In this document: positions 1,369 to 37,333 of the stretch, piece by piece
Position numbering within the stretch: position 1 is the first letter of the stretch
Layout of the letters: the number at the start of each line of letters is the position of its first letter
UHGV virus genome: UHGV-2035542
Reading direction: 5' to 3' (one strand)
DNA: 40,870 bases
DNA from: a virus
Translations under genes and position numbers: made by a program
The notes under the pieces: model-generated
Told to the model about the DNA's origin: nothing
Databases searched by the model: none
What the model saw: the letters and a program-made list of their open reading frames with translations, nothing else

Positions 1369-1444
1369 GCCGATATAGCTCAGTTGGTAGAGCAGCGCAT
1401 TCGTAATGCGAAGGTCGTAGGTTCGACTCCTATTATCGGCACCA
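1369..1444 (+). tRNA. thrW: tRNA-Thr (anticodon CGU), thrW-type, 76 nt with encoded CCA
   Basis: Cloverleaf readable by eye: acceptor GCCGATA/TATCGGC, anticodon loop TTCGTAA (anticodon CGT), T-loop TTCGACT, 3' ACCA. Confidence 0.9.
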
Positions 1445-8697: not shown

Positions 8698-9504
8698 CTA
8701 CTGTAACATAGAGGCAGCATTCAGCATCTTTTCGTAATATGAACGCATGTCTTCTTTGCTATATGCGTTGATAAGATTATCAGCGTGTTTTTCCAGTAGA
8801 TTTAGCTGCTGTTTTGCTGACTTTTCTTGTGCTGTCGTTTCAGCGGCAAAAATTACAAATGAATCAATATTTGAATTGTATAATTCGTAGGCTTTAGTAA
8901 TTGTTAAAACACTTATCGCAGCTTCACCCATTTGTTTTTTTATATTTTCAGAACGAAAATCTAATGTTTCTGTAAGATGGTATTTGCCATTTTTTAACAA
9001 AAAATCTGCAACTAACCCTTCTTCATTACTAATTGGATAATTAGCTACGATTTTATGTTGGGAAAGATCTTCAAAATACTTACTGAAAATTCCATGTTGT
9101 ATAAAGGTGGATTTTAATTCAGAAAAAACCTTTTTTTTCAACTGCTTATGTGGTTGTTTTTGTGGGTTTACTAACCGATTCATTAGATCAGTAACTTTAG
9201 CTTCGTAATCTTCGTTGGCTTGAAGAGTGAACATGCCAAATGACGATAACGATAATGCTCCCTTAAAAAGACAAGGAAGAAGTTCAGCATTGTTGATTTT
9301 TTGTGACAAATCAAAAAGCGAGGTTGAAAGATCCTCTAAGTAATCTAAGGTAAGATCTTTGTCAATCGCTTTAAGTTTTGAAACTGAATTGAGCATACGT
9401 ACGTCTATGTCAGAGTCATGGTAAACGATCAAACCAACGTTAATCGTTTCACCTTTCTCTAAGTTCGGTGTAACTCTGATTAAGCTGTATTTGAAAGTTT
9501 TCAA
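8698..9504 (-). CDS. DUF3037-like protein (268 aa), TTG start coupled to the upstream gene
   Basis: TTGA start/stop overlap with the kinase-like gene; GGAG about 10 nt upstream; N-terminus KYSLIRVTPNLEKGETINVGLIV resembles DUF3037-type proteins (from memory); visibly AT-rich. Confidence 0.6.
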   Translation of the reverse strand: MKTFKYSLIRVTPNLEKGETINVGLIVYHDSDIDVRMLNSVSKLKAIDKDLTLDYLEDLSTSLFDLSQKINNAELLPCLFKGALSLSSFGMFTLQANEDYEAKVTDLMNRLVNPQKQPHKQLKKKVFSELKSTFIQHGIFSKYFEDLSQHKIVANYPISNEEGLVADFLLKNGKYHLTETLDFRSENIKKQMGEAAISVLTITKAYELYNSNIDSFVIFAAETTAQEKSAKQQLNLLEKHADNLINAYSKEDMRSYYEKMLNAASMLQ

Positions 9505-10349
9505 GATGTTATCTCCAGTCTTATGGCATTTAGCCTATCGATTCGCTCCTCGCTATCCCACCACTTCAAAAAATACTCCTTATGCATTGGTGGCATCCAT
9601 GCTTCAGGCATAGAGTTAAGTATATCAGATATAGTCTCAACTCCAATTTTTTCAATTTTGTCAAGGACAGATAATGCGCACTTTCTCAGATCATCAGTGT
9701 CGCCAATGAATTGTTTAGCAATCGTCCAGTTTGTTGTTGTACTGGAGTCTGTTGGTAGTATATGAGGGGTATTTCGTGGCCAGCCTATAACAAAAGAGTT
9801 TAGACTAAAATCGAATGTTTTAACTATAACATTGCCTCGGGTGTTTTCCATGTATAAGTAGTTGTTGAGGTGTCTGTCAATGTTATATACAAACTGATCA
9901 AATGCATAAATTGCCCAGAGTTGCTTCTTTAAGGATTCAGAAGCATTTGAGAGCAAATTTATCCATTGAGGACTATTGAGACCAGATTTCCAGGCTGAAA
10001 ACTCTATGCGAGAGCCAAAAACATACTCCCCATTAGCAATACACTTGAGAATTTTGCACACAGGTGTAGCGATGCCGCATTTTTCAGCTAAATTTGTGCA
10101 AAACCATTCCGCTGCCGGTACTTGAGTTGGGTTTTGTACAGGAAAAGGTGGGGTGGAACGCATGCTTTTAACTGCATATTCCATTTCATCAGTGGCAATA
10201 GCGAAACCAGAAAGGTGTGCAGTGCCTAAGCTTGAAGGTGTATATTCATGAAATTCTAATTCAAACAAACTTCCTTGCTCTGGTTTCACTTCATCAGTGT
10301 TTGGCTCTTGTTCTTTCGTCATCAACTTTTTTCCCCAAATCGAAGACAT
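9501..10349 (-). CDS. protein-kinase-like fold protein (HipA/PI3-4-kinase-like catalytic signature), 282 aa
   Basis: AAGAGG RBS; YAVK (K61), catalytic-loop-like NIDRHLNN (D158-R159-H160...N163) and DFS (D180) about 20 residues downstream; 46 nt after the cI stop on the same strand. Confidence 0.65.
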   Translation of the reverse strand: MSSIWGKKLMTKEQEPNTDEVKPEQGSLFELEFHEYTPSSLGTAHLSGFAIATDEMEYAVKSMRSTPPFPVQNPTQVPAAEWFCTNLAEKCGIATPVCKILKCIANGEYVFGSRIEFSAWKSGLNSPQWINLLSNASESLKKQLWAIYAFDQFVYNIDRHLNNYLYMENTRGNVIVKTFDFSLNSFVIGWPRNTPHILPTDSSTTTNWTIAKQFIGDTDDLRKCALSVLDKIEKIGVETISDILNSMPEAWMPPMHKEYFLKWWDSEERIDRLNAIRLEITS

Positions 10350-14288: not shown

Positions 14289-15041
14289 ATGGATCCTAAA
14301 TTACTGTATGCCACGTTTAAACGAAATGACGCACCAGCTTGGCGCTGCCCGAACTGTATGAATGAAACACTGGAGATTGTCGCTGATAGTTTTGTAGAAA
14401 CTGATTCAAGCGCAACAACTCAGTTTAGAGATGAAGTATGGTTTGATGAGGAAATGTCGGGAGGAGTATTCAGTTGCGTGCTGCGCTGTACCCGCCAAGC
14501 CTGCCAGGAGAAGGTTGCTTTGTCTGGGCAGGTTGTTGCTGTAGAATGCTTCAATGACGAAATGACGGAGCGTTGGTATGTTTCTGGTTTCCGTCCTAAG
14601 TATTTCTATCCACCACTTCCTCTATTCCTGTTTCCTGAAAAGTGCCCTGAAGATATAGCTGATCTCTTGGCGGAAGTATCAGCTCTGATCCCCTCGCACC
14701 CAGCTTCAGCGGTGAACACCATGAGAACCATACTGGAGATGATGCTTGATAGTCTTGATGTACCAAGAGAGAAAACAGTTAAAGGCAAGATAATACGTCT
14801 TTCTACGCATGAAAGAATCACAAATTATTCAGATAAACTGGGACCAAATAAAGATGCATTCATGGCGTTAAAGTGGTTGGGGAATCACGGCAGTCATGGA
14901 GGGATTAAAGTCACAAGGTCCTCTATTAATGATGCCTGCATTCTCATTGGTCATTTGATTGACTTCTTATTCTTAGAAAGCCCGGATGTAACTATTCATA
15001 TTGAACGGATAAACAACGTGTATGCACCCAAAAAGGAGTAA
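14289..15041 (+). CDS. zinc-ribbon protein with a HEPN/DUF4145-like C-terminal region (degenerate motif)
   Basis: CPNC...CVLRC cysteine pairs; C-terminal KWLGNHGSHGG (N199-x3-H203-G) then a hydrophobic helix; GGAG RBS; AT-rich with its own upstream intergenic region. Confidence 0.55.
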   Translation: MDPKLLYATFKRNDAPAWRCPNCMNETLEIVADSFVETDSSATTQFRDEVWFDEEMSGGVFSCVLRCTRQACQEKVALSGQVVAVECFNDEMTERWYVSGFRPKYFYPPLPLFLFPEKCPEDIADLLAEVSALIPSHPASAVNTMRTILEMMLDSLDVPREKTVKGKIIRLSTHERITNYSDKLGPNKDAFMALKWLGNHGSHGGIKVTRSSINDACILIGHLIDFLFLESPDVTIHIERINNVYAPKKE

Positions 15042-15297: not shown

Positions 15298-15780
15298 ATG
15301 ATAAGTGCAGAAGGACTGCAGCGGTTACTTAATTTATCGGAGCCTCCATCTGATGAACTGATTGATGTTTATCTTCAATTCTGCATGATTTTTCCTAGGG
15401 TCGAGCAAAGTTTTTTTGGTGGCTTTGCTAAGGGGGAAGACAGTTTAAATTATGCGCGAACGTTACTTGACGCCGGGATAAAGGTGCCCAACGAACTTTT
15501 TCACGATTTTAAGCAGAGATACATTTTGAATGGGGATGCGCAGGAAAGACTTGACGCCCTCTGTGTCGGTCGAGAGAGAGATAGGCGGGGAATAGTTAAT
15601 GGACTTCAAAATGACGCAGCAACAGATCTAAACACCATGTCTACAGTATTAAAGATAGTTATAAGGATAAGAAATAACCTTTTCCACGGAAATAAAGACG
15701 CTTATCTTTTTGTTGATTCTCAAGAGCAAGCGCAACTATTGAGGTGGTGCGTGAGATTTCTCCAAGGATTATTAAATTAA
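15298..15780 (+). CDS. HEPN-like protein (R-x4-H motif)
   Basis: C-terminal RIRNNLFHG (R125...H130, codons 15670..15687) followed by a terminal helix; AGGAAGG RBS. Confidence 0.55.
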   Translation: MISAEGLQRLLNLSEPPSDELIDVYLQFCMIFPRVEQSFFGGFAKGEDSLNYARTLLDAGIKVPNELFHDFKQRYILNGDAQERLDALCVGRERDRRGIVNGLQNDAATDLNTMSTVLKIVIRIRNNLFHGNKDAYLFVDSQEQAQLLRWCVRFLQGLLN

Positions 15781-17459: not shown

Positions 17460-17837
17460 ATGCGTGATATTCAGATGGTTCTTGAGCGTTGGGGAGCGTG
17501 GGCGGCTAATAATCATGAAGATGTGACCTGGTCGTCCATTGCCGCCGGTTTTAAGGGATTAATTCCTTCAAAAGTAAAATCTCGCCCACAATGTTGTGAC
17601 GATGACGCGATGATCATTTGCGGGTGCATGGCCCGTCTGAAAAAGAACAACAGCGATTTGCATGATTTATTGGTGGACTATTATGTCGGCGGCATGACTT
17701 TTATGGCGCTTGCACGTAAGCATGGGCGATCTGATTGTTGGGTTGGCAGGATGCTCCAGAAAGCTGAGGGCGTAGTGGAGGGTATGCTGATGGTGTTGGA
17801 TCTCCGATTGGAGATGGATGCTGATTGTTCGAAATAA
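17460..17837 (+). CDS. Q: late-gene antiterminator Q (phage-21/DLP12 type)
   Basis: Position after the nin genes and before a promoter-plus-terminator unit; GGAG RBS; Cys-rich zinc-binding-like segment ([14 protein letters not shown]). Confidence 0.75.
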
Positions 17838-17849
17838 TTAAAGGAAAAG

Positions 17850-17878
17850 TTGCTGTCTGATTGTCATTAGTCTAACAT
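17850..17878 (+). promoter_or_regulatory. candidate late promoter pR' (TTGCTG-N17-TAACAT)
   Basis: Sigma70-like hexamers with 17-bp spacing immediately downstream of Q. Confidence 0.3.
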
Positions 17879-17937
17879 TTTAAATGTTGGAATCGCAACG
17901 TAGTTATTATCATATAACAGCTTGTTTCCTGATTTAG

Positions 17938-17963
17938 CCAGCCTCTCCAAAGGCTGGTTTTTT
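17938..17963 (+). terminator. intrinsic terminator, tR' equivalent
   Basis: CCAGCC-TCTCCAAA-GGCTGG hairpin followed by TTTTTT, about 100 nt after Q. Confidence 0.55.
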
Positions 17964-17991
17964 CTAATAAGTATTATTTCGAGTAGGGATT

Positions 17992-18516
17992 TTATTGTTT
18001 AACCCATAATAATTCATTGACATTGAATCCCAACTTTTGAGCGGTTCGCACATAGTCTGCTTTTACTTTATCTGGAATAGTTGGGGTCCTTGCCAGAATC
18101 CATAGGTATTCTCTGTTCGGACCACTGACAAGAGCATACTTATACTCATCATCCAGTTTGATTACATTATAGCCACCATAGAAGGGGCCAAAAAACGAAA
18201 CCTTCAACGCTGCAGTTTTAGTATCTCCAGTAAAGTATGCTTTACCTTCGCTCTCGCTCCATTTATTTTTCGTTGGATCGTATCCACGGTTAAGTACACG
18301 AATCCCTCCGTCGTTCCGTTTTCCATAAGTAGCGCTGACCTGTTCCAGACCACGTTCGAACCGGTTCTCGAGGCGAGCTATTTCATACCATTTTCCGAGG
18401 TAGCGGTTGGCGTCAAAATTTGTAATCGGCTGCACACCTTTAGGTGGTGTCGGGGCCTTACATGCTATAAGAGTGAAAGAGAGTGCAATGCCAGTCAACA
18501 CAGGCCATAACTTCAT
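17992..18516 (-). CDS. bacterial lipocalin (Blc-like) outer-membrane lipoprotein
   Basis: Lipoprotein signal with LIAC lipobox; NFDANRYLGKWYEIARLENRFERG...FFGPFYGGYNVI matches Blc from memory. Confidence 0.85.
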   Translation of the reverse strand: MKLWPVLTGIALSFTLIACKAPTPPKGVQPITNFDANRYLGKWYEIARLENRFERGLEQVSATYGKRNDGGIRVLNRGYDPTKNKWSESEGKAYFTGDTKTAALKVSFFGPFYGGYNVIKLDDEYKYALVSGPNREYLWILARTPTIPDKVKADYVRTAQKLGFNVNELLWVKQ

Positions 18517-18708
18517 AATAAATCCTGTACTTTTGATAGTTGAGAGTAAGTATGAAAGATAGATGATTACGACCGATCACTTAAAGAACTTTCATACTAT
18601 ATTAGGAATAGTCCATAACAGAAAAATTGTCAGTGATGACGCCAGAAAGGCAATTTATTCCGTGCATTACACAGTTTATGTGTTAATGAATTAGTCAAGG
18701 GGGAGAAT

Positions 18709-19668
18709 ATGATAAAAAAACCTGTGATTGGAATCAGCGGTTGTTTGACCGGTTCTGCTGTTCGTTTTGATGGTGGTCACAAAAGAGCTGACTTTTTAAT
18801 GGACAAATTAGTGGAATGGGTAACATTCAGACCAGTATGTCCAGAAATGGCTATAGGGCTGCCAGTTCCGCGTCCTGCTCTACGTCTTGTGCGCTCGACG
18901 CAAGGAAATATACGGATGTGTTTTAGCCACGACCAGAATGAGGATGTGACAGAGAGAATGACAGAGTTTAGTCGTTCTTATATGAACAAATTAAAGGATG
19001 TATCGGGGTTTGTGGTTTGTGCTAAATCTCCCAGCTGTGGCATGGAGCGCGTGCGTGTCTATGATGAAAATGGTAATCGAGGTCGTAAAGATGGAGTGGG
19101 ACTATTTACGAGCACTTTGATGGAAAAGTTTTCCTGGCTACCGGTTGAAGAGGATGGGCGATTACATGATCCAGTGCTTCGTGAGAATTTTGTTGAAAGA
19201 GTTTTTGCTTTGCATGAGCTCAATCATCTTTACAAGGAGAAATTATCAAGAAGAGAGTTATTAGCTTTTCATAGTCGTTATAAGCTTCAGTTATTGGCGC
19301 ATAGTCAGGCAGGCTATAAAGATATGGGACCATTTGTGGCTGCAATACACGAGTGGGCGGACCTTGAATCATACTTTGAGGTGTATCGTGATAAGCTGAT
19401 GGCGATTCTCAGAAAACCTGCATCACGTAAAAATCACACGAATGTGCTGATGCATATACAGGGGTATTTTAGTAACTACTTAAGTACACGCCAGCGTAAA
19501 GAGTTGAGCGAGGTTATACTTAACTATCGTTCTGGCACATTACCTCTTCTTGCGCCGTTGACTCTGCTGAAGCATTATCTGGGTGAGTATCCTAATGATT
19601 ACTTGCTTACACAGAATTACTTCGATCCCTATCCGGACGAACTGGCTCTAAGACTGATGGTAAATTAA
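18709..19668 (+). CDS. DUF523 (TudS-like thiouracil desulfidase fold)/DUF1722 fusion protein
   Basis: Conserved Cys pattern GISGCLTG, CPEMAIGLPVPRP, SPSCG consistent with a [4Fe-4S] DUF523 domain; C-terminal helical DUF1722-like region. Confidence 0.65.
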   Translation: MIKKPVIGISGCLTGSAVRFDGGHKRADFLMDKLVEWVTFRPVCPEMAIGLPVPRPALRLVRSTQGNIRMCFSHDQNEDVTERMTEFSRSYMNKLKDVSGFVVCAKSPSCGMERVRVYDENGNRGRKDGVGLFTSTLMEKFSWLPVEEDGRLHDPVLRENFVERVFALHELNHLYKEKLSRRELLAFHSRYKLQLLAHSQAGYKDMGPFVAAIHEWADLESYFEVYRDKLMAILRKPASRKNHTNVLMHIQGYFSNYLSTRQRKELSEVILNYRSGTLPLLAPLTLLKHYLGEYPNDYLLTQNYFDPYPDELALRLMVN

Positions 19669-20008
19669 TTGTATGCGATATCATCCAAAAGGATGAGTTC
19701 CTGCATGCAGGATATTTACAATCGTAAAAACTACACTATGATACCCAGAGTGTCAGTTTGTATAAAAACTCTGTTTACGCTGAAGAAACCATTGAGATGC
19801 AACTTAAAGTTGGTAAACATGCCAGTCAAAATATAATATTATGATTCCACGCAGCTATATATAATATAACAGATTGGTTTAATAATTTGTCTTTGTGAGT
19901 TAAATACATAATTTTATACTTGTGATGCAATGAGATTTTCCTTATTGTTGAACTGGCGAATATTGATTTTCCACCTATACTTACCTGGTGTAACCTCAAT
20001 GATATCAG

Positions 20009-20764
20009 GTGGATAATATGCCATACATATGTTCTATCATTTTGGTGTTGAACTCGTTTGATGCCCGAATTGGTAAAGAAGATATTTTGTTTAAAAAAGG
20101 AAGTGCTGTTCTCATTGATTACAATTTAAAAGATTTTTTTTCATCAAATATAGATCATGTAATGATCGTAGATGTTGAAGAGAAAACAGTTAATGATTTC
20201 TTTAAAAGCAACACACTCTCACCTTTTTCTGTAAGAAGGTTTTATCCGGCATACTTGATGGTGGAATGTGAAGATTTTTCATTGTTAAAGAACTTGATTG
20301 CATGCTTGAATTGTGATGGCAGAACTGTGGATTTTGTTAGAAATCAAATATCACTTGCATGTCTTGCTATCTTATCTTCAGAGAAAATAGTGCAAAGTTT
20401 TTTATTTGGATGTCTTAATAGTTTAGGAAGTAAAGTTAAGGCTATTATTCACACGGATATATCTGCAGCATGGAGACTTTGTGATATATCTTCAAGACTG
20501 TATCTGAGTGAAAGTCTGTTAAAAAGAAAATTAAAGCACGAAGGCTTATCATTTAGTAAGTTAATTCTTGAAGAGCGAATGGTGATGGCGGAAAGGTTAT
20601 TAAGCTACAATTTATATTCTGTTGGAAAAGTTGCTGAGATATGCGGTTATGAAAATACGTCATATTTTGTAAGTGTTTTCAGAAGATATTTTGGTGTTCC
20701 TCCCCATCAATATTCATCAAGATTTTTTTTAGAAAAAGACATGATGTCACGTGATACGTTTTAA
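20009..20764 (+). CDS. AraC-family transcriptional regulator
   Basis: C-terminal double-HTH typical of AraC/XylS (LLKRKLKHEGLSFSKLILEERMVMAERLL...VAEICGYENTSYFVSVFRRYFGVPP); very AT-rich. Confidence 0.75.
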   Translation: MDNMPYICSIILVLNSFDARIGKEDILFKKGSAVLIDYNLKDFFSSNIDHVMIVDVEEKTVNDFFKSNTLSPFSVRRFYPAYLMVECEDFSLLKNLIACLNCDGRTVDFVRNQISLACLAILSSEKIVQSFLFGCLNSLGSKVKAIIHTDISAAWRLCDISSRLYLSESLLKRKLKHEGLSFSKLILEERMVMAERLLSYNLYSVGKVAEICGYENTSYFVSVFRRYFGVPPHQYSSRFFLEKDMMSRDTF

Positions 20765-20810
20765 TGATTTTGTAATTTTCGTATTTGATAATTGTATGAT
20801 GCTTTCAGCT

Positions 20811-20842
20811 ACGCCAGAATAATCGCTGGCGTTTTTCTTTTT
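20811..20842 (+). terminator. intrinsic terminator after the AraC-like gene
   Basis: ACGCCAG-loop-CTGGCGT hairpin followed by TTTTTCTTTTT. Confidence 0.5.
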
Positions 20843-20937
20843 GAATAGATGTTCAAGCCTTACGCTAATGTAACTTCTATACCTTTCCTCTTCGTTCCGA
20901 ACCGTGTACACCATCCGTTATTTGCGGAGGTGAGGCT

Positions 20938-21153
20938 ATGAAATCCATGGATAAGTTAACAACGGGCATTGCCTACGGCACCTCCGCAGGCAGTGCTGGC
21001 TACTGGTTTTTACAGCTGCTCGATAAAGTCACGCCCTCACAGTGGGCAGCAATAGGTGTGCTGGGTAGCTTGGTATTTGGCCTGCTGACGTACCTGACAA
21101 ACCTTTATTTCAAGATTAAAGAAGATAAGCGCAAGGCTGCGAGAGGTGAATAA
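20938..21153 (+). CDS. S: class II holin (S21-type pinholin) with dual-start motif MKSM
   Basis: [24 protein letters not shown]...[24 protein letters not shown]; two TMDs; the dual Met start is typical of holin/antiholin pairs. Confidence 0.85.
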
Positions 21154-21650
21154 TGCCTCCATCATTACGAAAAGCTGTTGCTGCTGCTATTGGTGGCGGG
21201 GCTATTGCTATAGCATCTGTGTTAATCACTGGCCCAAGTGGTAACGATGGTCTGGAAGGTGTGAGACATAATCCTTACAAAGACATAGTTGGTGTATGGA
21301 CTGTATGTTACGGACACACCGGAAAAGACATTATGCTCGGTAAAACGTATACCGAAGCAGAATGCAAAGCCCTCCTGAATAAAGACCTTGCCACTGTCGC
21401 CAGACAAATTAACCCGTACATCAAAGTCGATATACCGGAAACAACGCGCGGCGCTCTTTACTCGTTCGTCTACAACGTGGGTGCTGGCAATTTCAGAACA
21501 TCGACGCTTCTTCGCAAAATAAACCAGAGTGATATCAAAGGCGCATGTGATCAGCTACGGCGCTGGACATACGCTGGCGGTAAGCAATGGAAAGGTCTCA
21601 TGACTCGTCGTGAGATTGAGCGTGAAATCTGTTTGTGGGGTCAGCAATGA
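21153..21650 (+). CDS. R: SAR endolysin (lysozyme with N-terminal signal-anchor-release domain)
   Basis: Gly/Ala-rich N-terminal hydrophobic SAR segment ([18 protein letters not shown]) followed by a lysozyme-like catalytic region; overlaps the holin stop. Confidence 0.85.
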
Positions 21651-22105
21651 ACAGAGTAACCGCGATTATCTCCGCTCTGGTTATCTGCATCATCGTCTGC
21701 CTGTCATGGGCTGTTAATCATTACCGTGATAACGCAATCGCCTACAAAGAGCAGCGCGATAACAAGGCCAGTGAACTGGAGAAGGCGAACGCCACCATCG
21801 CTGACATGCGGAAGCGTCAACGTGATGTAGCAGAACTCGACGCAAGATACACAAAGGAGCTTGCTGATGCTAACGCGACTATCGAAAGTCTCCGTGCTGA
21901 TGTTTCTGCTGGGCGTAAGCGCCTGCAAGTCGCCGCCACCTGTGCAAAGTCAACGACCGGAGCCAGCGGCATGGGCGATGGAGAAAGCCCAGGACTTACA
22001 GCAGATGCTGAACTCAATTATTACCGTCTCCGAAGTGGAATCGACAGGATAACCGCGCAGGTTAACTACCTGCAGGAGTACATCAGGACGCAATGTCTGA
22101 AATAA
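21647..22105 (+). CDS. Rz: Rz i-spanin
   Basis: N-terminal TMD then coiled coil; ATGA overlap with the endolysin stop. Confidence 0.8.
21861..22052 (+). CDS. Rz1: Rz1 o-spanin lipoprotein embedded in Rz in the +1 frame
   Basis: Signal peptide with lipobox (LLGVSAC) followed by a Pro-rich mature peptide, entirely inside Rz. Confidence 0.65.
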
Positions 22106-22309: not shown

Positions 22310-22831
22310 ATGAATATCGTGCCACTTAATTACAAAGGTGAAATTGTCAGTTTCAACACTGATGGTTGGATCAACGTCACAGGTGTTGCTGAGAGATTTG
22401 GGAAACGCATTGATAACTGGATGCGTTTGGCAGAAACGCTTGAATACGTTCGTGCTTTAGACGAAGCGTTGACCGGGAAAGAATCTCAAATTTTACATCC
22501 CTCACAATCGAGGTATGTAAAAACCAGCAAGGCACGAAAGGACAGGGGTGGTGGTACGTGGCTACATCCAAAACTTTCAGTTGCATTTGCCCGTTGGTGT
22601 GATGCTCGTTTTGCTGTGTGGTGCGACCTGCACATTGATAGTCTGCTTCGCGGTGAACTGACTGAGCAGCAGAAATATGAGCAAGCATGTCGCATTCGCG
22701 ATGACCGGAAATCAAAAGCCAGCAATGGGGCAAGAGAGATGGCTCGCTGGCGATGGGATAAGCCGGTTATTGAAGCAAATGTTGAGTACTGGCGCGAGCA
22801 ACTGCAGTTGACTCTCGATATCGCGTGCTGA
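22310..22831 (+). CDS. KilA-N domain protein
   Basis: WLHPKLSVAFARWCD-type KilA-N/APSES signature. Confidence 0.65.
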   Translation: MNIVPLNYKGEIVSFNTDGWINVTGVAERFGKRIDNWMRLAETLEYVRALDEALTGKESQILHPSQSRYVKTSKARKDRGGGTWLHPKLSVAFARWCDARFAVWCDLHIDSLLRGELTEQQKYEQACRIRDDRKSKASNGAREMARWRWDKPVIEANVEYWREQLQLTLDIAC

Positions 22832-23315: not shown

Positions 23316-23741
23316 ATGGCGACTGAGAAAAAGAAAGGTGGTCGCCCCTCTGATTATATGCCGGAGGTGGCTAATGACATTTGCGCATTGCTTTCCTCCG
23401 GTGAGAGTCTGCGCAAAGTTTGCGAACGCCCAGGAATGCCGAGCAAAACATCAGTTTTTCGCTGGCTGGCTGAACATCAGGAGTTTCGTGACCAGTACGC
23501 GAAGGCAACAGAGACTCGGGCCGACTCTATTTTCGAAGAGATATTCGAAATTGCTGACGACGTAATCCCTGATGCCGCCGAGGTGGCAAAGGCAAGACTT
23601 CGCGTTGATACCCGCAAATGGGCGCTGGCCAGAATGAATCCCCGTAAGTATGGCGACAAGGTAACTAATGAGCTTGTCGGCAAAGACGGAGGCGCAATCC
23701 AGATTGAAACATCACCGATGAGCACTCTGTTCGGAAAATGA
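23316..23741 (+). CDS. terminase small subunit (Sf6-like)
   Basis: MATEKKKGGRPSDYMPEVANDICALLSSGESLRKVCERPGMP...; overlaps the terminase large subunit start. Confidence 0.8.
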   Translation: MATEKKKGGRPSDYMPEVANDICALLSSGESLRKVCERPGMPSKTSVFRWLAEHQEFRDQYAKATETRADSIFEEIFEIADDVIPDAAEVAKARLRVDTRKWALARMNPRKYGDKVTNELVGKDGGAIQIETSPMSTLFGK

Positions 23742-25153
23742 CCTCGATTAATCCTATCTTTGAACCGTTCATTGAGGCGCATCGCTACAAAGTCGCCAAA
23801 GGCGGTCGAGGTAGCGGCAAATCATGGGCAATTGCGAGGCTGCTTGTTGAAGCGGCGCGTCGGCAGCCAGTGCGTATTCTCTGCGCTCGCGAACTGCAAA
23901 ACAGTATCAGCGATTCGGTAATCCGGCTGCTTGAAGACACCATAGAGCGTGAAGGGTATACGGCTGAGTTTGAAATTCAGCGTTCCATGATTCGTCATCT
24001 CGGAACGAATGCTGAGTTCATGTTCTACGGCATCAAAAACAACCCGACGAAGATTAAATCGCTCGAAGGCATTGATATCTGCTGGGTGGAAGAAGCGGAA
24101 GCGGTAACAAAGGAATCGTGGGATATCCTGATGCCAACCATCCGCAAGCCGTTTTCCGAAATATGGGTGAGCTTTAACCCGAAGAACATACTCGACGATA
24201 CCTATCAGCGATTCGTTGTAAATCCTCCCGATGATATTTGCCTGCTGACGGTGAACTACACCGACAACCCGCACTTTCCTGAAGTTCTCCGTCTGGAGAT
24301 GGAAGAGTGCAAACGCAGAAACCCGACACTGTATCGTCACATCTGGCTTGGTGAGCCAGTAAGCGCAAGTGATATGGCAATCATCAAACGTGAATGGCTT
24401 GAAGCCGCAACCGATGCGCACAAGAAACTCGGATGGAAAGCGAAAGGCGCTGTTGTCTCTGCGCATGACCCATCAGACACAGGGCCAGATGCTAAAGGTT
24501 ACGCATCGCGTCACGGTTCGGTAGTTAAGCGCATTGCCGAAGGCCTGCTGATGGACATCAACGAGGGCGCTGACTGGGCTACTTCTCTGGCGATTGAAGA
24601 CGGCGCTGACCACTACTTGTGGGATGGTGATGGTGTTGGTGCAGGTCTACGCAGACAGACAACGGAAGCGTTCTCCGGTAAGAAAATCACCGCCACGATG
24701 TTCAAGGGCAGCGAATCGCCATTCGATGAGGATGCGCCTTATCAGGCCGGAGCATGGGCTGATGAAGTCGTGCAGGGCGACAACGTTCGCACTATTGGCG
24801 ATGTATTCCGCAATAAGCGAGCGCAATTCTATTACGCGCTGGCTGACAGGCTGTATCTGACATATCGGGCGGTTGTTCACGGTGAGTATGCAGACCCCGA
24901 CGACATGCTGAGTTTCGACAAAGAAGCAATAGGCGAGAAGATGCTGGAGAAGCTGTTTGCAGAACTTACGCAGATTCAGCGCAAATTCAATAACAACGGG
25001 AAGCTGGAGCTTATGACTAAGGTAGAAATGAAGCAAAAGCTCGGGATCCCATCTCCTAACCTGGCTGATGCGTTGATGATGTGTATGCATTGCCCGGAGT
25101 CGGCTGCGCAACCCGACTATTCCAGTTACTCAATTCCTTGTGGTGTAGGTTGA
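23738..25153 (+). CDS. terminase large subunit
   Basis: Walker A (KVAKGGRGSGKSWA), ATPase plus nuclease domain layout; 471 aa. Confidence 0.9.
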   Translation: MTSINPIFEPFIEAHRYKVAKGGRGSGKSWAIARLLVEAARRQPVRILCARELQNSISDSVIRLLEDTIEREGYTAEFEIQRSMIRHLGTNAEFMFYGIKNNPTKIKSLEGIDICWVEEAEAVTKESWDILMPTIRKPFSEIWVSFNPKNILDDTYQRFVVNPPDDICLLTVNYTDNPHFPEVLRLEMEECKRRNPTLYRHIWLGEPVSASDMAIIKREWLEAATDAHKKLGWKAKGAVVSAHDPSDTGPDAKGYASRHGSVVKRIAEGLLMDINEGADWATSLAIEDGADHYLWDGDGVGAGLRRQTTEAFSGKKITATMFKGSESPFDEDAPYQAGAWADEVVQGDNVRTIGDVFRNKRAQFYYALADRLYLTYRAVVHGEYADPDDMLSFDKEAIGEKMLEKLFAELTQIQRKFNNNGKLELMTKVEMKQKLGIPSPNLADALMMCMHCPESAAQPDYSSYSIPCGVG

Positions 25154-25154
25154 T

Positions 25155-27353
25155 ATGGCAGAAAAAAAGATGACTGACTGGCATCGCAAGGTGCTGTGCA
25201 ACTTTGATAATGCCTGGTCAGCAACGCAGGATATGCGTGAGCAGATTATTGAGGCTCAACGTTTCGTCAGGGTGTCCGGCGCACAGTGGGAAGGCAGCAC
25301 AAACGCTGGTTACTCATTTGATGAAGGCAGGTTTGAGCATTATCCGCGTTTTGAACTGAATAAGATTGCCCGTGAATGTGATCGCATCATTGGCGAGTAT
25401 CGACAGAATCGCATCAGCGTTAAATTCAGACCGAAGGACGATAAGGCATCGGAAGCGTTAGCCGAAAAGATGAACGGAAAATTCCGCGCTGACTATCAGG
25501 AAACATCCGGTGGCGAAGCGTGTGATAACGCATTTGATGATGCCGTAACGGGTGGATTTGGTTGTTTCCGCATGTGTGCCGATTACGAAGATGAAATGGA
25601 TCCTAGTAATGAGCAGAGGCGCATCAGCCTTCTTCCTGTTTACGACCCGGCGACATGCGTCTTCTTCGATCAGGACAGCAAGCAATATGACCGCTCTGAT
25701 GCTATGTGGGCTATGGAAATGTTCTCCATGACGCCTAAAGCGTTCGAGGCTGAATACCCTGATTCCATTGCGGCAAGCCTTTCTCGGGATGACACTGGTA
25801 CTCAGTATGACTGGTCAACGCCCGATGCCATCTATGTTGGACGCTACTACGAAGTTCGCATAGAGAAGGTGAAGCTCACGGCGTGGCGCAACCCTGTTAG
25901 CGGAGAAACGGCAATCTATGATGAAGAGCAAATCAAAGATATTGTCGACGAGCTGACCGATGGTGCATTCGAACTGATTGGCGAGCGAACGGTGAAGAAG
26001 CGCCGCGTTTATTGCGGTCTTCTGTCTGGCGCTGAATGGCTGGAAGAACCGAAGCGTATTCCGGGCGAACATATTCCTCTCATCCCGGTATATGGGCGTC
26101 GCTCATTTGTTGATAATCAGGAGCGAATAGAAGGCCACGCAGCAAAAGCGATGGATGCACAGCGTCTTGAGAACCTGATGGTTTCTATGATTGCAGATAA
26201 CGCTACTCAGGCTGGCGGTGATGGCATTCCTATCGTGGATGTTGATTTCATTCCCGGCCCATTAATGAATCACTGGGCAGAGAGGAATAAGAAAAGACCT
26301 GCAGTTCTTCCCATGACCAGCAAGAAGGACAAAAACGGAACGGTCATTTCAGAGGCTCAGGTTGCTGGCTGGACACCTCCGACACAAATGCCTCCTGCTC
26401 TTGCCGGGCTATTGCAGTACACCGGAACGGCTATTCAGCAAATTACAGGTGCGTCGCAGCTTGAGAACATGCCGAGCAACGTCGCTACCGATACCGTTGA
26501 TAGCATCTTTAACCGGATGGACACGCAGTCCTATATCTACATGGACAACATGGCTAAATCCATGCGTCGCGCTGGCGTTGTGTGGCTTTCTATGGCGCGT
26601 GAGGTCTATGGCAGTGATACGCCGATGCGTATCGTTAATGAGGACGGCAGCGATGACGTGGCGCTGATGACTGGTGAAGTGGTTGACCGTCAGACAGGGC
26701 AGGTTATCGCGCTTAATGACCTTTCGCAGGGTAACTATGAAGTGACTGTCGATGTTGGCCAGTCGTTCGCTACTCGCCGTGATGCAACGGTTAAGTCGTT
26801 ACTTTCCATGCTGGCACTTATCCCACCAGGAACTCCGAAGCACGACCTTGTATCGTCGATGATTCTCGACAATATGGACGGCGAAGGGATGGACGACCTG
26901 AAAGAATACAACCGCAATCAGTTGCTTCTGTCTGGCGTTATCAAGCCGAGAACGCCTGAAGAGCAGCAGATGGTTGAACAGGCGAAACAACAACAGGCCA
27001 GTCAGCCAGATCCGGCTATGGTTGCAGCGCAAGGTCAGCTTCTTGCTGGTCAGGCTGAATTGCAGAAAGCGCAGAACGAACAGGCAGCCATTCAGGTTAA
27101 AGCATTCCAGGCACAAACTGATGCTCAGGTTGCAGCGGCAAATGTTGTGAAAATACTCGCATCTGCCGATAGCCAGCAGAAATCTGATATCCGCGAGGCT
27201 CTGAAACTGCTCGGACAGTTCCAGCAACAGCAAGGAGACAATGCCCGTGCTGATGCAGAGCTTGTCCTGAAAAGTCAGGCACAGGGCCATGCGCAGCGCA
27301 TGGACATCAGCAGCATCCTGCAAAAATCAACCCGGCAACAACCACAGCAGTAA
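25155..27353 (+). CDS. portal protein (P22-like, with Gln/Ala-rich C-terminal helical barrel)
   Basis: 732 aa; C-terminal Q/A-rich coiled region as in P22-family portals. Confidence 0.9.
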   Translation: MAEKKMTDWHRKVLCNFDNAWSATQDMREQIIEAQRFVRVSGAQWEGSTNAGYSFDEGRFEHYPRFELNKIARECDRIIGEYRQNRISVKFRPKDDKASEALAEKMNGKFRADYQETSGGEACDNAFDDAVTGGFGCFRMCADYEDEMDPSNEQRRISLLPVYDPATCVFFDQDSKQYDRSDAMWAMEMFSMTPKAFEAEYPDSIAASLSRDDTGTQYDWSTPDAIYVGRYYEVRIEKVKLTAWRNPVSGETAIYDEEQIKDIVDELTDGAFELIGERTVKKRRVYCGLLSGAEWLEEPKRIPGEHIPLIPVYGRRSFVDNQERIEGHAAKAMDAQRLENLMVSMIADNATQAGGDGIPIVDVDFIPGPLMNHWAERNKKRPAVLPMTSKKDKNGTVISEAQVAGWTPPTQMPPALAGLLQYTGTAIQQITGASQLENMPSNVATDTVDSIFNRMDTQSYIYMDNMAKSMRRAGVVWLSMAREVYGSDTPMRIVNEDGSDDVALMTGEVVDRQTGQVIALNDLSQGNYEVTVDVGQSFATRRDATVKSLLSMLALIPPGTPKHDLVSSMILDNMDGEGMDDLKEYNRNQLLLSGVIKPRTPEEQQMVEQAKQQQASQPDPAMVAAQGQLLAGQAELQKAQNEQAAIQVKAFQAQTDAQVAAANVVKILASADSQQKSDIREALKLLGQFQQQQGDNARADAELVLKSQAQGHAQRMDISSILQKSTRQQPQQ

Positions 27354-27443
27354 TTAACCCATAACGTGCAATGGCTGTCTTTATGAGGCCTGGCACCCTA
27401 TTGCCTTCCGATGGGCTGAACATCGAGTAAACAGGGGTAACAA

Positions 27444-28337
27444 ATGGACCAGATGGCAGAAAACACACCAGAAGTTGAAATCGAAACCGACGCGTCAGAG
27501 CAGATTCCTGATGATGTCGAACTGGCTGAAGAAGTCGAAACAGAAGATGGCAGTGAGTCCTCTGGCAATGATGCAGAGGAAGCTACTGAAACTGATGACG
27601 ACGAATCAGAACAGGAATTCTACTTTGGTGACGAAAAGCTGGATTCGCCAACCAGCGAAGATAGCGCAGAGCATGGACTGGTAAAACACCTGCGCAAGAC
27701 GATTAAAGAGAAAGATCGCGAGCTGAAAGAGCTGATGCGTCAGTCTCAGAAACCCGTCGAGCAGCAGCCGGTAATCACTCAACCACCGCGAATGCCAAAA
27801 CTGGATGATGAGGACATCGGTTTCGATGAAGAAATCTATCAGCAACGCATGGCTAAGTGGGCAGAGGATAACGGAAAGTACCAGCAACAGGAGATGGCTC
27901 GCAAGCAGAAGGAGCAGGAGCTTCAGGCTGCTTATCAAGAGCGATTATCCAAATATCAGCAACGTGTTAAGGCTCTCAAGGTTCCTGGCTATCAGGAAGC
28001 AGAACAGGCCGTACTCGAGGAAATCCCCATCGAGACACAAAACGCGATCCTGTTTGAGTCAGAGAAGCCGGAAATCGTTGTTCTGGCGCTTGGTCGCAAC
28101 GCTGAACTGCGCAAGCAACTGGCAGAAGCTACCAACCCCGTAGCAATTGGTCGTCTGCTGGAACGTATCGAATCGAAGGCCAGAATCATGCCAAAAGCAA
28201 AAACCACGGCAGCCACAACCCCGACAGTTAAGGGGAGCAACGGCGCAGTAATCAATAACCTCGACAAACTGAAAGCCAAGGCGCTGGAAACTGGTGACTG
28301 GACGCCGTATTTCGCCGCTAAAAAGGCAAAAAAATAA
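27444..28337 (+). CDS. scaffolding protein
   Basis: Acidic N-terminus, coiled-coil core and basic C-terminus between portal and coat. Confidence 0.8.
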   Translation: MDQMAENTPEVEIETDASEQIPDDVELAEEVETEDGSESSGNDAEEATETDDDESEQEFYFGDEKLDSPTSEDSAEHGLVKHLRKTIKEKDRELKELMRQSQKPVEQQPVITQPPRMPKLDDEDIGFDEEIYQQRMAKWAEDNGKYQQQEMARKQKEQELQAAYQERLSKYQQRVKALKVPGYQEAEQAVLEEIPIETQNAILFESEKPEIVVLALGRNAELRKQLAEATNPVAIGRLLERIESKARIMPKAKTTAATTPTVKGSNGAVINNLDKLKAKALETGDWTPYFAAKKAKK

Positions 28338-28355
28338 CCTATCGGAGCATTAAGC

Positions 28356-29609
28356 ATGGCTAACCAATTAGCAAAAGACCTTGAAATCATGTTCGAAAAC
28401 TACGTTGAAGGCTTTGAGGCCGCCTGCGTAGTTTCCCGTAACGCTAAAAAATTCCGTCCCGGTGATACAGCAATGCAGCGAGCAGGTGATGTTCTGTATC
28501 GTCCGCAGCATTACCACATGAATATTGAGGAAGGCCTCGACCTCAGCAGCAAAACGCCAACAGCACTGGTTCAGCGCCTTGTTCCTTCTGTGTTCAAGGA
28601 GCCGAAAAACATTCTGTACACTCTGGATGCGCGTGAAATGCGTGACCCGGAACATAAAACTGAAGCTGGTCGCGCCGCAGGTATGCGCCTTGCTGCACAG
28701 ATTGACTCTGACCTAATTTCCATGGTTACGCAGCGTGCTACTAACGTGATCACAATGTCTGACTCAACCACTGGTTCACAGGGCCGTGATTTGTGGAACT
28801 GTGCGGCAGGTATTGATGCCACTATGACGGCGATTGGTGTACCGCAGGGTATCAACCGCCGCTCTTTCTGGAACCCCTTCAACTACAAAGACCTTGCTGG
28901 CGAGCTTGGTCACCGTGCCTATGCTCAGGGCGCAACCTTGACAGCATACGAAAAAGCGCAGATCCCTCCGGTTGCGTCCTTCGATAGCTACAAGACCGAT
29001 ATTTCTGGTCGTGTTCCGAAGGGTACAGCAACTTCCCTGACGCTGGCGGCTGAACCTGCGCACAAGGTTGAAGCGAAAGATGCCAACGATATGCCAGTGG
29101 ATAACCGACAGGGGACCATTACGGTATCTGCATCTGGTTTGCAGGTTGGCGATGCGTTTACCATTGCAGGGGTGAATTCCGTACACCAGATCACCAAAGA
29201 TACCACCGGGCAGCTGCAGGTATTCCGCGTTCTGGCAGTAAGCGGAACGACAGTAACTATCTCCCCGAAAATTCTGCCGCCTGACAACGCGGATGTCGCC
29301 AGCCGACCATATGCAAACGTTGATGCTAACGCGGCAAATGGTGCAGCAATTACCATTCTCAACAAAAATGCCGCACCGGCTAACCTGTTCTGGGCTGATG
29401 GTTCTGTTGAGCTGATGTACGGCAAACTGGCGTTCCCTACTGGTCAGGGGCCACAGGTAATGACAGCAACCACCGAGCAGGGCGCTACGCTGATCATGTC
29501 TTACGCCTTCGACCACATCAAAGGTGTAACCACTGCGCGTTTCACCACCCTGTACGGTTGCTCTGTACTTGTTCCTGAATATACGGGCATCGTTATTGCC
29601 GGGCAGTAA
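28356..29609 (+). CDS. major coat protein (P22/Sf6-like)
   Basis: 417-aa ORF in coat position followed by a strong terminator. Confidence 0.85.
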   Translation: MANQLAKDLEIMFENYVEGFEAACVVSRNAKKFRPGDTAMQRAGDVLYRPQHYHMNIEEGLDLSSKTPTALVQRLVPSVFKEPKNILYTLDAREMRDPEHKTEAGRAAGMRLAAQIDSDLISMVTQRATNVITMSDSTTGSQGRDLWNCAAGIDATMTAIGVPQGINRRSFWNPFNYKDLAGELGHRAYAQGATLTAYEKAQIPPVASFDSYKTDISGRVPKGTATSLTLAAEPAHKVEAKDANDMPVDNRQGTITVSASGLQVGDAFTIAGVNSVHQITKDTTGQLQVFRVLAVSGTTVTISPKILPPDNADVASRPYANVDANAANGAAITILNKNAAPANLFWADGSVELMYGKLAFPTGQGPQVMTATTEQGATLIMSYAFDHIKGVTTARFTTLYGCSVLVPEYTGIVIAGQ

Positions 29610-29616
29610 TTTTGGT

Positions 29617-29640
29617 GGGGCTTCGGCCCCATTTTTATTT
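29617..29640 (+). terminator. intrinsic terminator after the coat gene
   Basis: GGGGC-TTCG-GCCCC hairpin followed by a T-tract. Confidence 0.65.
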
Positions 29641-29650
29641 GGAGAAGACA

Positions 29651-29839
29651 ATGGCACGAACAATGCTCTATAAGCCTGGCAACATGATCACCTGTGGTCA
29701 GTTTGCTGTCGATTACATCATTGTTGATGACGAAGAAGTTAAATCTCACCTGAAAAAAGGCTGGGTAAAAACTCCTGAAGAAACCGCAACGAAGCATAAA
29801 GTGGCTAAGGCGGAAGAAGATGGCGAAAACGAAGGGTGA
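29651..29839 (+). CDS. hypothetical small head-region protein
   Basis: GGAG RBS before MARTMLYKPG; overlaps the next gene start. Confidence 0.4.
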   Translation: MARTMLYKPGNMITCGQFAVDYIIVDDEEVKSHLKKGWVKTPEETATKHKVAKAEEDGENEG

Positions 29840-30281
29840 TCTCGTTCTTAAGGCTTTACGAAAAGCCGGGCTGTATTCCAATGCCACGTTGACAGATGCC
29901 GACCCTCAGGCAATAGAAGATGCCATTAATGACCTCGAAGACATGATGGCAGCATGGCAGGCGAAAGGTATCGAGCTTGGATATCAGTTTGCTGATACAG
30001 AAAACGGCATCATGCCGTTACCTGACGATGATTCAGGTATCCCTGCATGGGCAAATGATGGCGTCGCTTTGAAACTCGCTGTGCAAGTGTGCATGGATAA
30101 CGTCATTCAGCCGTCAGATGCTCTCCTTACCGCTGCTGACAGCGCATATCAGACAATCTGCATCGCTTTAACCAAAATACCACCACTTGAGCGGCGAAAT
30201 GACATGCCTCGCGGTAGTGGTAACAAAAGCGCGTTTACGTGGAATCGGTTTTACATCGAGAAAGATGATCCGAGTACGTGA
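29820..30281 (+). CDS. gp4-like head completion/tail adaptor protein
   Basis: Position and size as in the P22 4-10-26 neck gene series. Confidence 0.65.
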   Translation: MAKTKGDLVLKALRKAGLYSNATLTDADPQAIEDAINDLEDMMAAWQAKGIELGYQFADTENGIMPLPDDDSGIPAWANDGVALKLAVQVCMDNVIQPSDALLTAADSAYQTICIALTKIPPLERRNDMPRGSGNKSAFTWNRFYIEKDDPST

Positions 30282-30290
30282 GGTGAATAA

Positions 30291-31709
30291 ATGCCGATTC
30301 AGCAACTTCCGCTTATGAAAGGTGTCGGCAAAGACTTTCGAAACGCCGACTATATCGACTATCTGCCAGTGAATATGCTGGCTACACCCAAAGAAATCCT
30401 CAACAGCAGCGGATATCTTCGCTCATTCCCGGGCATTGCCAAACGTTCTGATGTGAACGGTGTATCTCGAGGCGTCGAGTACAACATGGCGCAGAATGCT
30501 GTCTATCGTGTGTGTGGCGGCAAGCTCTACAAAGGCGAAAGCGAGGTCGGTGATGTTGCCGGAAGTGGTCGCGTATCAATGGCGCATGGTCGAACATCTC
30601 AGGCGGTAGGCGTTAATGGTCAACTGATCGAGTATCGCTATGATGGCACGGTTAAAACAGTCTCAAACTGGCCTACAGACAGCGGATTCACTCAGTATGA
30701 GTTAGGTTCGGTTCGCGACATTACGCGTTTACGTGGGCGTTATGCGTGGTCAAAAGACGGCACTGATTCATGGTTTATCACTGACCTTGAAGACGAATCG
30801 CATCCTGACCGTTACAGCGCACAATATCGTGCCGAGTCTCAGCCGGACGGCATCATCGGTATCGGGACATGGCGAGACTTCATCGTCTGCTTTGGTTCAT
30901 CGACTATTGAATATTTCTCCCTGACTGGCGCAACCACCGTTGGTGCTGCTTTGTATGTCGCACAGCCATCACTGATGGTGCAAAAAGGCATTGCCGGAAC
31001 TTACTGTAAAACGCCGTTTGCTGATTCTTATGCGTTTATCAGCAATCCGGCAACAGGTGCTCCGTCTGTATACATCATCGGCTCCGGTCAGGTGTCACCA
31101 ATCGCCAGCGCGAGCATTGAGAAAATCCTCCGCTCCTACACTGCTGATGAACTGGCTGATGGTGTGATGGAATCGCTGCGGTTTGATGCTCATGAGTTGC
31201 TGATTATCCACCTTCCTCGCCATGTTCTTGTTTACGACGCATCTTCAAGCGCCAATGGTCCGCAATGGTGTGTGTTGAAAACAGGCCTGTATGACGATGT
31301 GTACCGCGCTATCGACTTCATTTACGAAGGCAATCAGATAACGTGCGGCGATAAGCTGGAGTCCGTGACCGGGAAATTGCAATTCGACATCAGCAGCCAG
31401 TACGACAAGCAACAGGAACACCTGCTGTTTACTCCACTGTTCAAAGCGGATAACGCCAGAGTGTTCGACCTTGAGGTTGAATCGTCAACTGGCGTTGCGC
31501 AGTATGCTGACCGCCTTTTTCTCTCTGCAACCACTGACGGCATCAATTACGGGCGTGAGCAGATGATTGAGCAGAATGAACCGTTCGTTTACGACAAACG
31601 CGTTTTGTGGAAGCGAGTAGGGCGCATCAGGAAAAATGTCGGCTTCAAATTGCGCGTTATCACGAAGTCACCTGTCACTCTGTCTGGCTGCCAGATAAGG
31701 ATTGAGTAA
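30291..31709 (+). CDS. gp10-like head completion protein
   Basis: 472-aa ORF following the gp4-like gene. Confidence 0.7.
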
Positions 31710-32865: not shown

Positions 32866-32867
32866 CC

Positions 32868-33560: not shown

Positions 33561-33569
33561 GGGGTAATC

Positions 33570-36862: not shown

Positions 36863-36951
36863 CTTCGCAAACACCAGGAACGTGCAAAAACCAAATATGT
36901 AGAACGCAATATTCAGCATATCTCTTTGCATAAATCCTCCGTAACTGATGG

Positions 36952-37212: not shown

Positions 37213-37333
37213 CCTTGATGCCTCACCAGTTGGGTGGAATGGCATCGTAACCTACTGGATAAATACTCAATAGTACCATTTCGGTATGCAATCACATCAT
37301 GGTTGCATCATATCATTCGTCTGGAGCAATGAA

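Follow-up and report, generated by a model that had tools for sequence, protein, structure and literature searches.

A predicted tRNA 4-thiouridine desulfidase gene, rudS, in an exchangeable late-region cassette of Escherichia coli prophages

The DNA examined here is UHGV virus genome UHGV-2035542, a stretch of 40,870 nt that we refer to as the window, and the gene in question is rudS, a 319-amino-acid (aa) open reading frame (ORF) that lies between a late-gene antiterminator gene and the lysis genes (Table 1). A strong Shine-Dalgarno-like sequence, GGGGGAG, is found 5 nt upstream of its ATG. A preliminary description of the window, made from the letters alone, had read this ORF as a TudS-like DUF523 domain fused to a DUF1722 domain, on account of three cysteine-containing motifs. 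All three are present exactly as given: GISGCLTG at aa 8-15, CPEMAIGLPVPRP at aa 44-56 and SPSCG at aa 107-111. Profile searches placed both Pfam domains far above their cutoffs, with 137.7 bits against a cutoff of 34.7 for PF04463 (2-thiouracil desulfurase/DUF523; E 3.6e-40) and 138.3 bits against 22.5 for PF08349 (DUF1722; E 1.8e-40). Fusions of TudS and DUF1722 have been named RudS and described as tRNA 4-thiouridine (s4U8) desulfidases (Jamontas et al. 2024; PMC11417400). It is likely that the window ORF encodes an enzyme of this type and that the explanation developed below, including its capture, expression and effect on 4-thiouridine (s4U), is correct as a whole.

The phrog_3275 family of PHROGs covers the full rudS product (E 1.7e-226) under the label "unknown function", and in E. 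coli genomes the Prokaryotic Genome Annotation Pipeline (PGAP) gives the entire phage protein the name 'YbgA family protein', which is also carried by the chromosomal RudS of Citrobacter, Enterobacter and Klebsiella. YbgA of E. coli K-12 (b0707) is a stand-alone DUF1722 protein of about 169 aa that is homologous to aa 160-315 of the window protein; unlike RudS it lacks a catalytic domain and has no effect on s4U. The NCBIfam equivalog model for YbgA (PRK10167) matched only aa 160-315 and scored below its cutoff (190.8 bits against 237; E 1.4e-56). The sub-cutoff score and the fusion to a catalytic domain led us to reject the identification of the C-terminal half as simply E. coli YbgA, and the whole product is likewise not a DUF1722-only protein. 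Nor is it a stand-alone TudS, which has a single DUF523 domain in about 150-170 aa, the product here being a two-domain fusion of 319 aa; a TudS-related NCBIfam model scored 18.5 against a cutoff of 130.

The predicted ligands of the [4Fe-4S] cluster are C12, C44 and C110, and the residues of the catalytic motifs are E46, R55, S107 and S109. All seven are invariant across 20 enterobacterial homologues and are kept in 80 of 80 copies from IMG/VR. The cysteine pattern put forward in the preliminary description was upheld. (IMG/VR holds 126 stretches that encode rudS, and the counts of intactness, residues and gene order refer to 80 loci fetched from these.) The biochemical reference for the family is RudS_KT of Pseudomonas putida (PP_0741), a TudS-DUF1722 fusion like the window protein, in which Cys17/49/114, Glu51, Arg60 and Ser111/113 were found to be essential by mutagenesis (PMC11417400). 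Judged by motif spacing rather than by direct alignment, E46, R55, S107 and S109 stand in the same relation to the cysteine ligands as Glu51, Arg60, Ser111 and Ser113 do in RudS_KT: both proteins have C-x-E, S-x-S-C and an arginine 11 residues past the second cysteine.

The N-terminal domain shares its fold with TudS (DUF523Vcz; PDB 6Z92/6ZW9), a stand-alone [4Fe-4S] thiouracil desulfidase to which the window protein is about 25% identical over roughly 160 alignment columns. In sequence searches of the PDB, made both with the single sequence and with a profile, only aa 6-68 aligned to TudS (6Z92), whose C10, C43 and E45 fell opposite the first two cysteine ligands and E46. The third cysteine and the Ser-x-Ser motif were therefore not alignable by sequence, and a fold search and the motif spacing were used for them. 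In an AlphaFold2 (AF2) model with a mean predicted local distance difference test (pLDDT) of 73 and a predicted template modelling score (pTM) of 0.73, the N-terminal domain gave the TudS structures as its only PDB matches at E ≤ 0.001 with Foldseek (E 3e-5, probability 1.00, target template modelling score 0.70). The C-terminal DUF1722 domain is all-helical in the model, and a Foldseek search of the PDB found no solved structural relative for it.

RudS desulfurates 4-thiouridine at position 8 of intact tRNA in vivo as well as in vitro, the [4Fe-4S] TudS domain being the catalytic core and the DUF1722 domain binding the anticodon region or arm of the tRNA (PMC11417400). Overexpression in E. 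coli of every RudS tested lowered tRNA s4U by 4.7- to 26-fold, a change that neither stand-alone TudS nor E. coli YbgA brought about, and overexpression of RudS_KT in E. coli gave a smaller growth delay under ultraviolet A (UVA) (PMC11417400). The proteins tested included RudS_vir, gp66 of Escherichia phage 1H12 (H3V29_gp66, NC_049947), for which Cys12/44/110 were listed as ligands (PMC11417400). RudS_vir is also 319 aa long and is identical to the window protein at 296 of 319 positions (93%) in a gap-free alignment; the three cysteines and the motifs are the same, and none of the 23 substitutions falls at a catalytic position. Judging by what RudS_vir does when overexpressed in E. coli, the window protein would be expected to remove s4U from tRNA.

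The preliminary description had proposed an enzyme acting on thiolated uracil or uridine. The connection with s4U in tRNA stands; free thiouracil as the main substrate does not agree with the published behaviour of RudS, which acts on intact tRNA (PMC11417400). TudS, which lacks DUF1722, uses free 2- and 4-thiouracil and 4-thio-UMP and leaves tRNA s4U unchanged in vivo. RudS variants, RudS_vir included, gave no growth on 2-thiouracil and poor growth on 4-thiouracil, and none of them rescued a uracil auxotroph in the way that TudS did (PMC11417400). The family, its activity and a phage orthologue with 93% identity are already published, and the molecular identity of the window protein is not new.

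The gene lies in a 3.1-kb cassette of cargo that has the marks of an exchangeable insert. Homology to the phages ev243 and mEp332, which have a porin gene in this slot, ends at 17819 and restarts at 20927, and DLP12-type phages also carry a porin gene here. The GC content is 43% for rudS, 44% for the neighbouring lipocalin gene (blc) and 32% for an AraC-type gene, with a range of 30-46% across the cassette compared to 47% for the whole window. With its replaceable position between Q/tR′ and the lysis genes, its deviant GC content and a terminator-like hairpin on either flank, the insert has the features of a moron, cargo that is dispensable for phage growth. The preliminary description had placed rudS in sense orientation downstream of tR′, and this was upheld: rudS has the orientation of Q and of the lysis genes and follows the candidate tR′ hairpin. 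That hairpin has a predicted energy of −15.6 kcal/mol (z −4.2 versus shuffled sequences) and is kept in phage 1H12 with a sole change in the loop; the second hairpin is at −11.3 kcal/mol (z −2.8). The promoter pR′ was sought by scan and was not placed with confidence; a short conserved ATATAACAG block common to the window and ev243 may mark it. The Q counterpart in a near-identical E. coli locus is annotated 'antiterminator Q family protein'.

Table 1. Features of the rudS region and of the surrounding prophage, in window coordinates
Feature	Position	Strand	Basis or remark
rudS (TudS-DUF1722 fusion, predicted [4Fe-4S] tRNA 4-thiouridine desulfidase)	18709..19668	+	ATG, 319 aa, stop included
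TudS/DUF523 catalytic domain of rudS product (aa 7-149)	18727..19155	+	PF04463
DUF1722 helical domain of rudS product (aa 192-309)	19282..19635	+	PF08349
Late-gene antiterminator Q, 130 aa	17445..17837	+	PF06530 Phage_antitermQ, E 2.5e-51
Intrinsic-terminator-like hairpin and T-run, candidate tR′	17936..17959	+	9-bp stem, 5 G-C pairs, then TTTTTTCT
Exchangeable 3.1-kb cargo cassette, Q to holin gene	17820..20926		Homology breakpoints versus ev243 and mEp332
Blc-type outer-membrane lipocalin, 174 aa, divergent from rudS	17992..18516	-	Lipocalin_2, E 7e-44
blc-rudS intergenic region, probable divergent promoter region	18517..18708		Conservation versus 1H12
AraC/XylS-family regulator (YdeO/GadX/PatE-like), probably separately acquired cargo	20009..20764	+	Pfam HTH_18, HTH_AraC
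Second terminator-like hairpin, araC to holin gene	20811..20832	+	7-bp stem, 5 G-C pairs, then TTTTTCTTTTT
Holin S (phage 21/DLP12 type), first lysis gene past the cassette	20938..21153	+	PF04971, E 2.2e-35
Lysozyme gene	21153-21650	+	Pfam; directly after holin S
ORF, lysis protein / Rz-like spanin	21635-22105	+	Annotation of counterparts in related loci
proA	1-1254		
tRNA-Thr(CGU), thrW	1369-1444		
Integrase gene	1459-2619	-	
Tailspike, P22 head-binding domain and S74 chaperone domain	37286-39643		
O-antigen acyltransferase gene, right end	39746-40870		Reaches the window end

The lipocalin matched the NCBIfam Blc model PRK10477 with 316 bits against a cutoff of 267. The AraC-type protein gave YdeO (best), GadX and HilD as its top NCBIfam matches, all below cutoff, and is 53% identical to Sakai ECs_0287 of prophage Sp1, which we take to be the orthologue of PatE, a prophage-encoded activator of acid-resistance genes. 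Its gene has a GC content at third codon positions (GC3) of only 0.26 and is probably a separate regulatory moron; promoter-like sites are present ahead of it at 19715-19742 and 19810-19837. The cassette of 1H12 has the same order of Q, blc, rudS, AraC-type gene and holin gene as the window, with an AraC-type protein that is only 82% identical, but the carriers differ: the window is a P22-like prophage at thrW and 1H12 a lambda-like siphovirus. The viral RudS cited in the family study come from Siphoviridae only (PMC11417400). The deposited phage IdasGreatGrand has a closer copy of rudS (99%), annotated just as hypothetical.

Comparison of the window with 1H12 also shows how the gene has been kept. 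For rudS, dN (nonsynonymous changes per site) is 0.034 and dS (synonymous changes per site) is 0.304, a dN/dS of 0.11; the ratios for blc and araC are 0.065 and 0.28. As dN/dS is 0.11, rudS is under purifying selection and is being maintained rather than decaying. Identity between the two phages is 92% over the rudS coding sequence, 58% in the spacer between rudS and araC, and 96% over the initial 124 nt between blc and rudS. This conserved block hints at a retained regulatory region that might be able to drive expression in the lysogen. A sigma-70 scan found 14 promoter-like sites against 10.7 expected and was uninformative; the matches within the intergenic region are weak only (e.g. 18540-18567).

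The preliminary description regarded such an enzyme as an unusual phage passenger. Among deposited phages it is indeed rare, a full-length rudS being found in 12 of 50,697 records, all of them E. coli lambdoid phages (the 1H12/Lambda_ev group and IdasGreatGrand); the remaining phage matches in these records cover the TudS domain only, at about 30% identity. Among E. coli prophages the claim fails. A search at ≥80% coverage found rudS in 1064 of the 5426 complete E. coli genomes (about 20%), at 1186 matching places of which 1184 are chromosomal, and 979 genomes have the entire 3.8-kb Q-blc-rudS-araC-S stretch. The same order was found in 71 of the 80 viral contigs from IMG/VR, and all 80 rudS copies are intact 319-aa ORFs. 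Thus rudS is rare among phages generally and routine in E. coli prophages. Both the family study (PMC11417400) and a 2026 review describe E. coli as being without RudS; given the 1064 genomes with an intact prophage copy, this holds for the K-12 and B laboratory strains and not for the species as a whole.

Several individual loci deserve mention. Insertion sequences (IS2, IS3, IS911 or IS200/IS605) are present inside the cassette in several E. coli genomes (hits H41-H48 and H51), and strain MINF_9A has an IS1 within rudS, whose DUF523 and YbgA-family pieces are annotated separately; these insertions represent occasional decay of the cargo. One E. coli entry of 403 aa (P0002) joins a RudS-like sequence (92% query coverage, 99% identical) to a GGDEF domain and is probably a chimeric gene call or an assembly artefact. 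Two short contigs of a 'Candidatus Nanosynbacter' metagenome-assembled genome (L056 and L061; JARKOR010000151.1 and JARKOR010000135.1) carry Q-blc-rudS-araC-holin with 94-100% protein identity, and are almost certainly a binning contaminant rather than evidence of a Saccharibacteria gene.

Outside E. coli, the nearest proteins are chromosomal orthologues, also of 319 aa, from Citrobacter, Kluyvera, Klebsiella, Enterobacter, Leclercia and Pectobacterium. They have the same architecture and cysteine positions at 67-77% aa identity, and Salmonella RudS_ST (STM1389/ORF319) likewise has Cys 12/44/110 (PMC11417400). In 41 of 62 chromosomal loci from other Enterobacterales, a blc-type lipocalin gene is upstream of and divergent from rudS, as in the phage. 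The two genes are directly adjacent in C. sedlakii, about 190 bp apart, while in Enterobacter hormaechei (locus L014) they are separated by a MerR/MlrA-type regulator gene and a 153-aa ORF. The chromosomes of Enterobacterales thus seem to conserve a lipocalin-(MerR)-RudS module. MerR-family regulators have been reported for the rudS genes of Salmonella and E. cloacae, and RudS_KT is encoded in a light-regulated phrB-litR operon (PMC11417400). In contrast, rudS of the window is in a phage cargo cassette where neither the ORF list nor Pfam revealed a MerR-type or photolyase ORF, so that this typical, though not defining, context of RudS is absent.

With the rudS-linked lipocalins of Enterobacter, Leclercia and C. 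sedlakii the phage Blc shares 77-82% identity, and with Blc of E. coli K-12 only 60%. The most economical reading is that blc and rudS were taken up as a pair from the chromosome of an enterobacterium other than E. coli and that the MerR-type regulator did not come with them. When the cassette was compared by blastn with the 62 chromosomal rudS loci, identity was 65-75% and confined to the blc and rudS coding regions, with no intergenic homology. Between the phage and the chromosomal rudS genes synonymous sites are saturated, and the base composition of the phage copy is shifted towards AT (GC3 0.39 versus 0.59-0.68). We sought a recent donor of the cassette and could name none; with DNA identity of 65-75% and saturated synonymous sites, the capture either took place long ago or came from an unsampled donor. 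The chromosomal loci lack the AraC-type gene, which also differs in composition and was therefore acquired separately. Citrobacter braakii ATCC 51113 has two full-length rudS paralogues on different contigs (L004 and L005), both sharing about 76% identity with the phage protein; the L004 copy is flanked by an AI-2E transporter gene and a GGDEF-EAL gene and has no blc in its vicinity.

These comparisons allow the enzymatic mechanism to be stated, by orthology, with fair confidence. C12, C44 and C110 of the TudS domain would hold a [4Fe-4S] cluster whose free fourth iron binds and abstracts the sulfur of 4-thiouridine; E46, S107, S109 and R55 would be catalytic, with the glutamate and serines supplying acid-base chemistry. 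The helical DUF1722 domain would dock on the anticodon arm, and s4U8 in intact tRNA would be returned to uridine. As a moron, rudS would have been taken together with the lipocalin gene from an enterobacterial chromosome, where such a pair usually has a MerR-type regulator gene with it (lying between the two in the one locus examined). In lambdoid and P22-like prophages of E. coli, rudS now occupies a swappable slot that separates Q/tR′ from the lysis genes. In this position it could be read by Q-modified polymerase during the lytic phase and, in the lysogen, probably from its own upstream region. By lowering host tRNA s4U, the enzyme would probably blunt s4U8-C13 crosslinking by near-UV (UVA), the growth delay that results and the stringent response. 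An E. coli host, having no chromosomal RudS, would thereby gain a function that Enterobacter, Citrobacter and Salmonella encode themselves.

The timing of rudS expression and the benefit to lysogen or phage are what we infer rather than observe. We favour lysogenic conversion, that is lower s4U, less UVA crosslinking and a shorter growth delay in the lysogen, a view in keeping with the lipocalin and PatE-like regulator carried alongside. Several points weigh against the explanation as a whole. No convincing promoter was found upstream of rudS, the best sigma-70 match being 9/12, and the chromosomal MerR-type regulator is absent, which makes expression in the lysogen an assumption. Confidence in the AF2 model is only moderate, with residues 14-28 and 282-319 at a pLDDT below 50, and the equivalence of S239/R240 to Ser243/Arg244, the DUF1722 contact residues of RudS_KT, is based on motif and not on an alignment with RudS_KT. 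Finally, RudS_vir desulfidated tRNA more weakly than other RudS proteins despite a relatively high protein level, and it had the shortest lag on 4-thiouracil of the RudS tested (PMC11417400); its preferred substrate in vivo may be less tRNA-specific. This last behaviour speaks for an enzyme that, like TudS, desulfurates mainly free 4-thiouracil or 4-thio-UMP from tRNA turnover, for salvage or detoxification, with tRNA as a minor substrate, and the catalytic domain is after all a TudS domain. Against such a role, however, stand the failure of any RudS to rescue the uracil auxotroph as TudS did or to grow on 2-thiouracil, and the lowering of tRNA s4U by RudS_vir but not by stand-alone TudS (PMC11417400). 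The DUF1722 domain, needless for an enzyme of this kind, is moreover intact and strongly conserved, and we regard the small-molecule role as improbable.

The main rival to lysogenic conversion is a role in late infection, in which the Q-antiterminated late transcript would be the sole source of RudS and s4U would be erased from host tRNA, either to sustain late translation when the prophage is induced under UV or sunlight, or to alter the stability or pools of tRNA in favour of phage protein synthesis. We infer that rudS will be transcribed during lytic growth, since it is co-oriented with the late operon and lies behind a terminator that Q-modified polymerase should read through. The gene lies in sense orientation, with Q and its terminator hairpin on one side and the holin gene on the other; the stretch from rudS to araC showed no terminator-like site, the next being just before the holin gene, and the sigma-70 scan found no good independent promoter. 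Toxin genes of Shiga toxin (Stx) phages occupy the same slot and are expressed from the late transcript, a precedent for expression of this kind, and UV induction of the prophage and photodamage at s4U would share a trigger. However, late expression would leave little time for the tRNA pool to turn over before lysis, repair of already crosslinked tRNA by RudS is not known, and blc is antisense to the late transcript. The conservation of the 124-nt block suggests that a chromosomal regulatory region was kept, and the other genes of the cassette are of a type that benefits the lysogen. Near-UV is said to lower the capacity of the host for phage growth with an s4U-like action spectrum, in old reports that we did not use as evidence; a search of the literature for a link of s4U or near-UV to phage growth found nothing usable. 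We consider a purely lytic role doubtful. A passenger with no selected function for phage or lysogen, common only because its Q-to-S module is common, would be in keeping with a slot that accepts unrelated cargo such as the porin gene, and with the insertion sequences in or near the cassette in some E. coli genomes, including the IS1 that splits rudS. But a dN/dS of 0.11 across phage variants at a dS of 0.30, intact copies with every catalytic residue in all 80 viral loci, and retention across virion types from the lambda-like siphoviruses 1H12 and IdasGreatGrand to the P22-like prophage here make this very improbable. The small-molecule role and the neutral passenger are less likely than lysogenic conversion or a late-infection role.

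The prophage context given in the preliminary description was borne out by proA, tRNA-Thr, an integrase gene, P22 portal and coat genes and a tailspike gene. The prophage is P22-like (Sf101/CUS-3/720R6-like) and has integrated at the thrW tRNA-Thr(CGU) beside proA. After the integrase gene come genes for a CI-like repressor, for replication and of the nin region, and the virion genes (portal, coat and tailspike, in the region 23738-40870) are of P22 type. PADLOC had no match for RudS, Blc or the AraC-type protein, and an anti-phage defence reading of the cassette was rejected. Just past the CI-like repressor gene, a frequent site of exclusion or defence genes in lambdoid phages, two overlapping ORFs of 268 and 282 aa (8698-9504 and 9501-10349, both on the minus strand) gave weak PADLOC matches to the candidate systems PDC-M66B (E 2.6e-8) and PDC-M03A (E 7.6e-7). 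The nin region holds further cargo on the plus strand, flanked by DNA of low GC content (39-44%): a DUF4145 protein (14289-15041; phrog_1305, 'DNA binding protein') and a 160-aa protein with no Pfam family (15298-15780; phrog_27260, unknown function). Right after the lysis genes is a KilA-N domain protein of 173 aa (22310-22831, plus strand), in the position where IdasGreatGrand has an annotated anti-repressor.

What remains of interest beyond the published enzyme is the prevalence of rudS in E. coli, the capture of blc with it but without the MerR-type regulator, and its role for phage or lysogen. The searchable literature reports no phenotype of rudS at native expression in phage or lysogen. 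Tentatively, we propose that in about one-fifth of E. coli strains rudS may be an eraser of tRNA modification, acting in lysogenic conversion (or late infection) free of light-sensing MerR control, that would change tolerance to UVA and sunlight, stringent-response signalling and perhaps tRNA stability; together with the lipocalin and the PatE-like acid-resistance regulator it might form a cassette for 'outside-the-gut survival'. Despite the view of E. coli as a species without RudS, prophage copies uncoupled from the chromosomal MerR-type regulator are widespread in it. If rudS is expressed, differences between E. coli strains in s4U, UVA growth delay and sensitivity to solar disinfection could depend on prophage content, and the gene would stand as a clear example of a tRNA de-modification enzyme carried by a phage.

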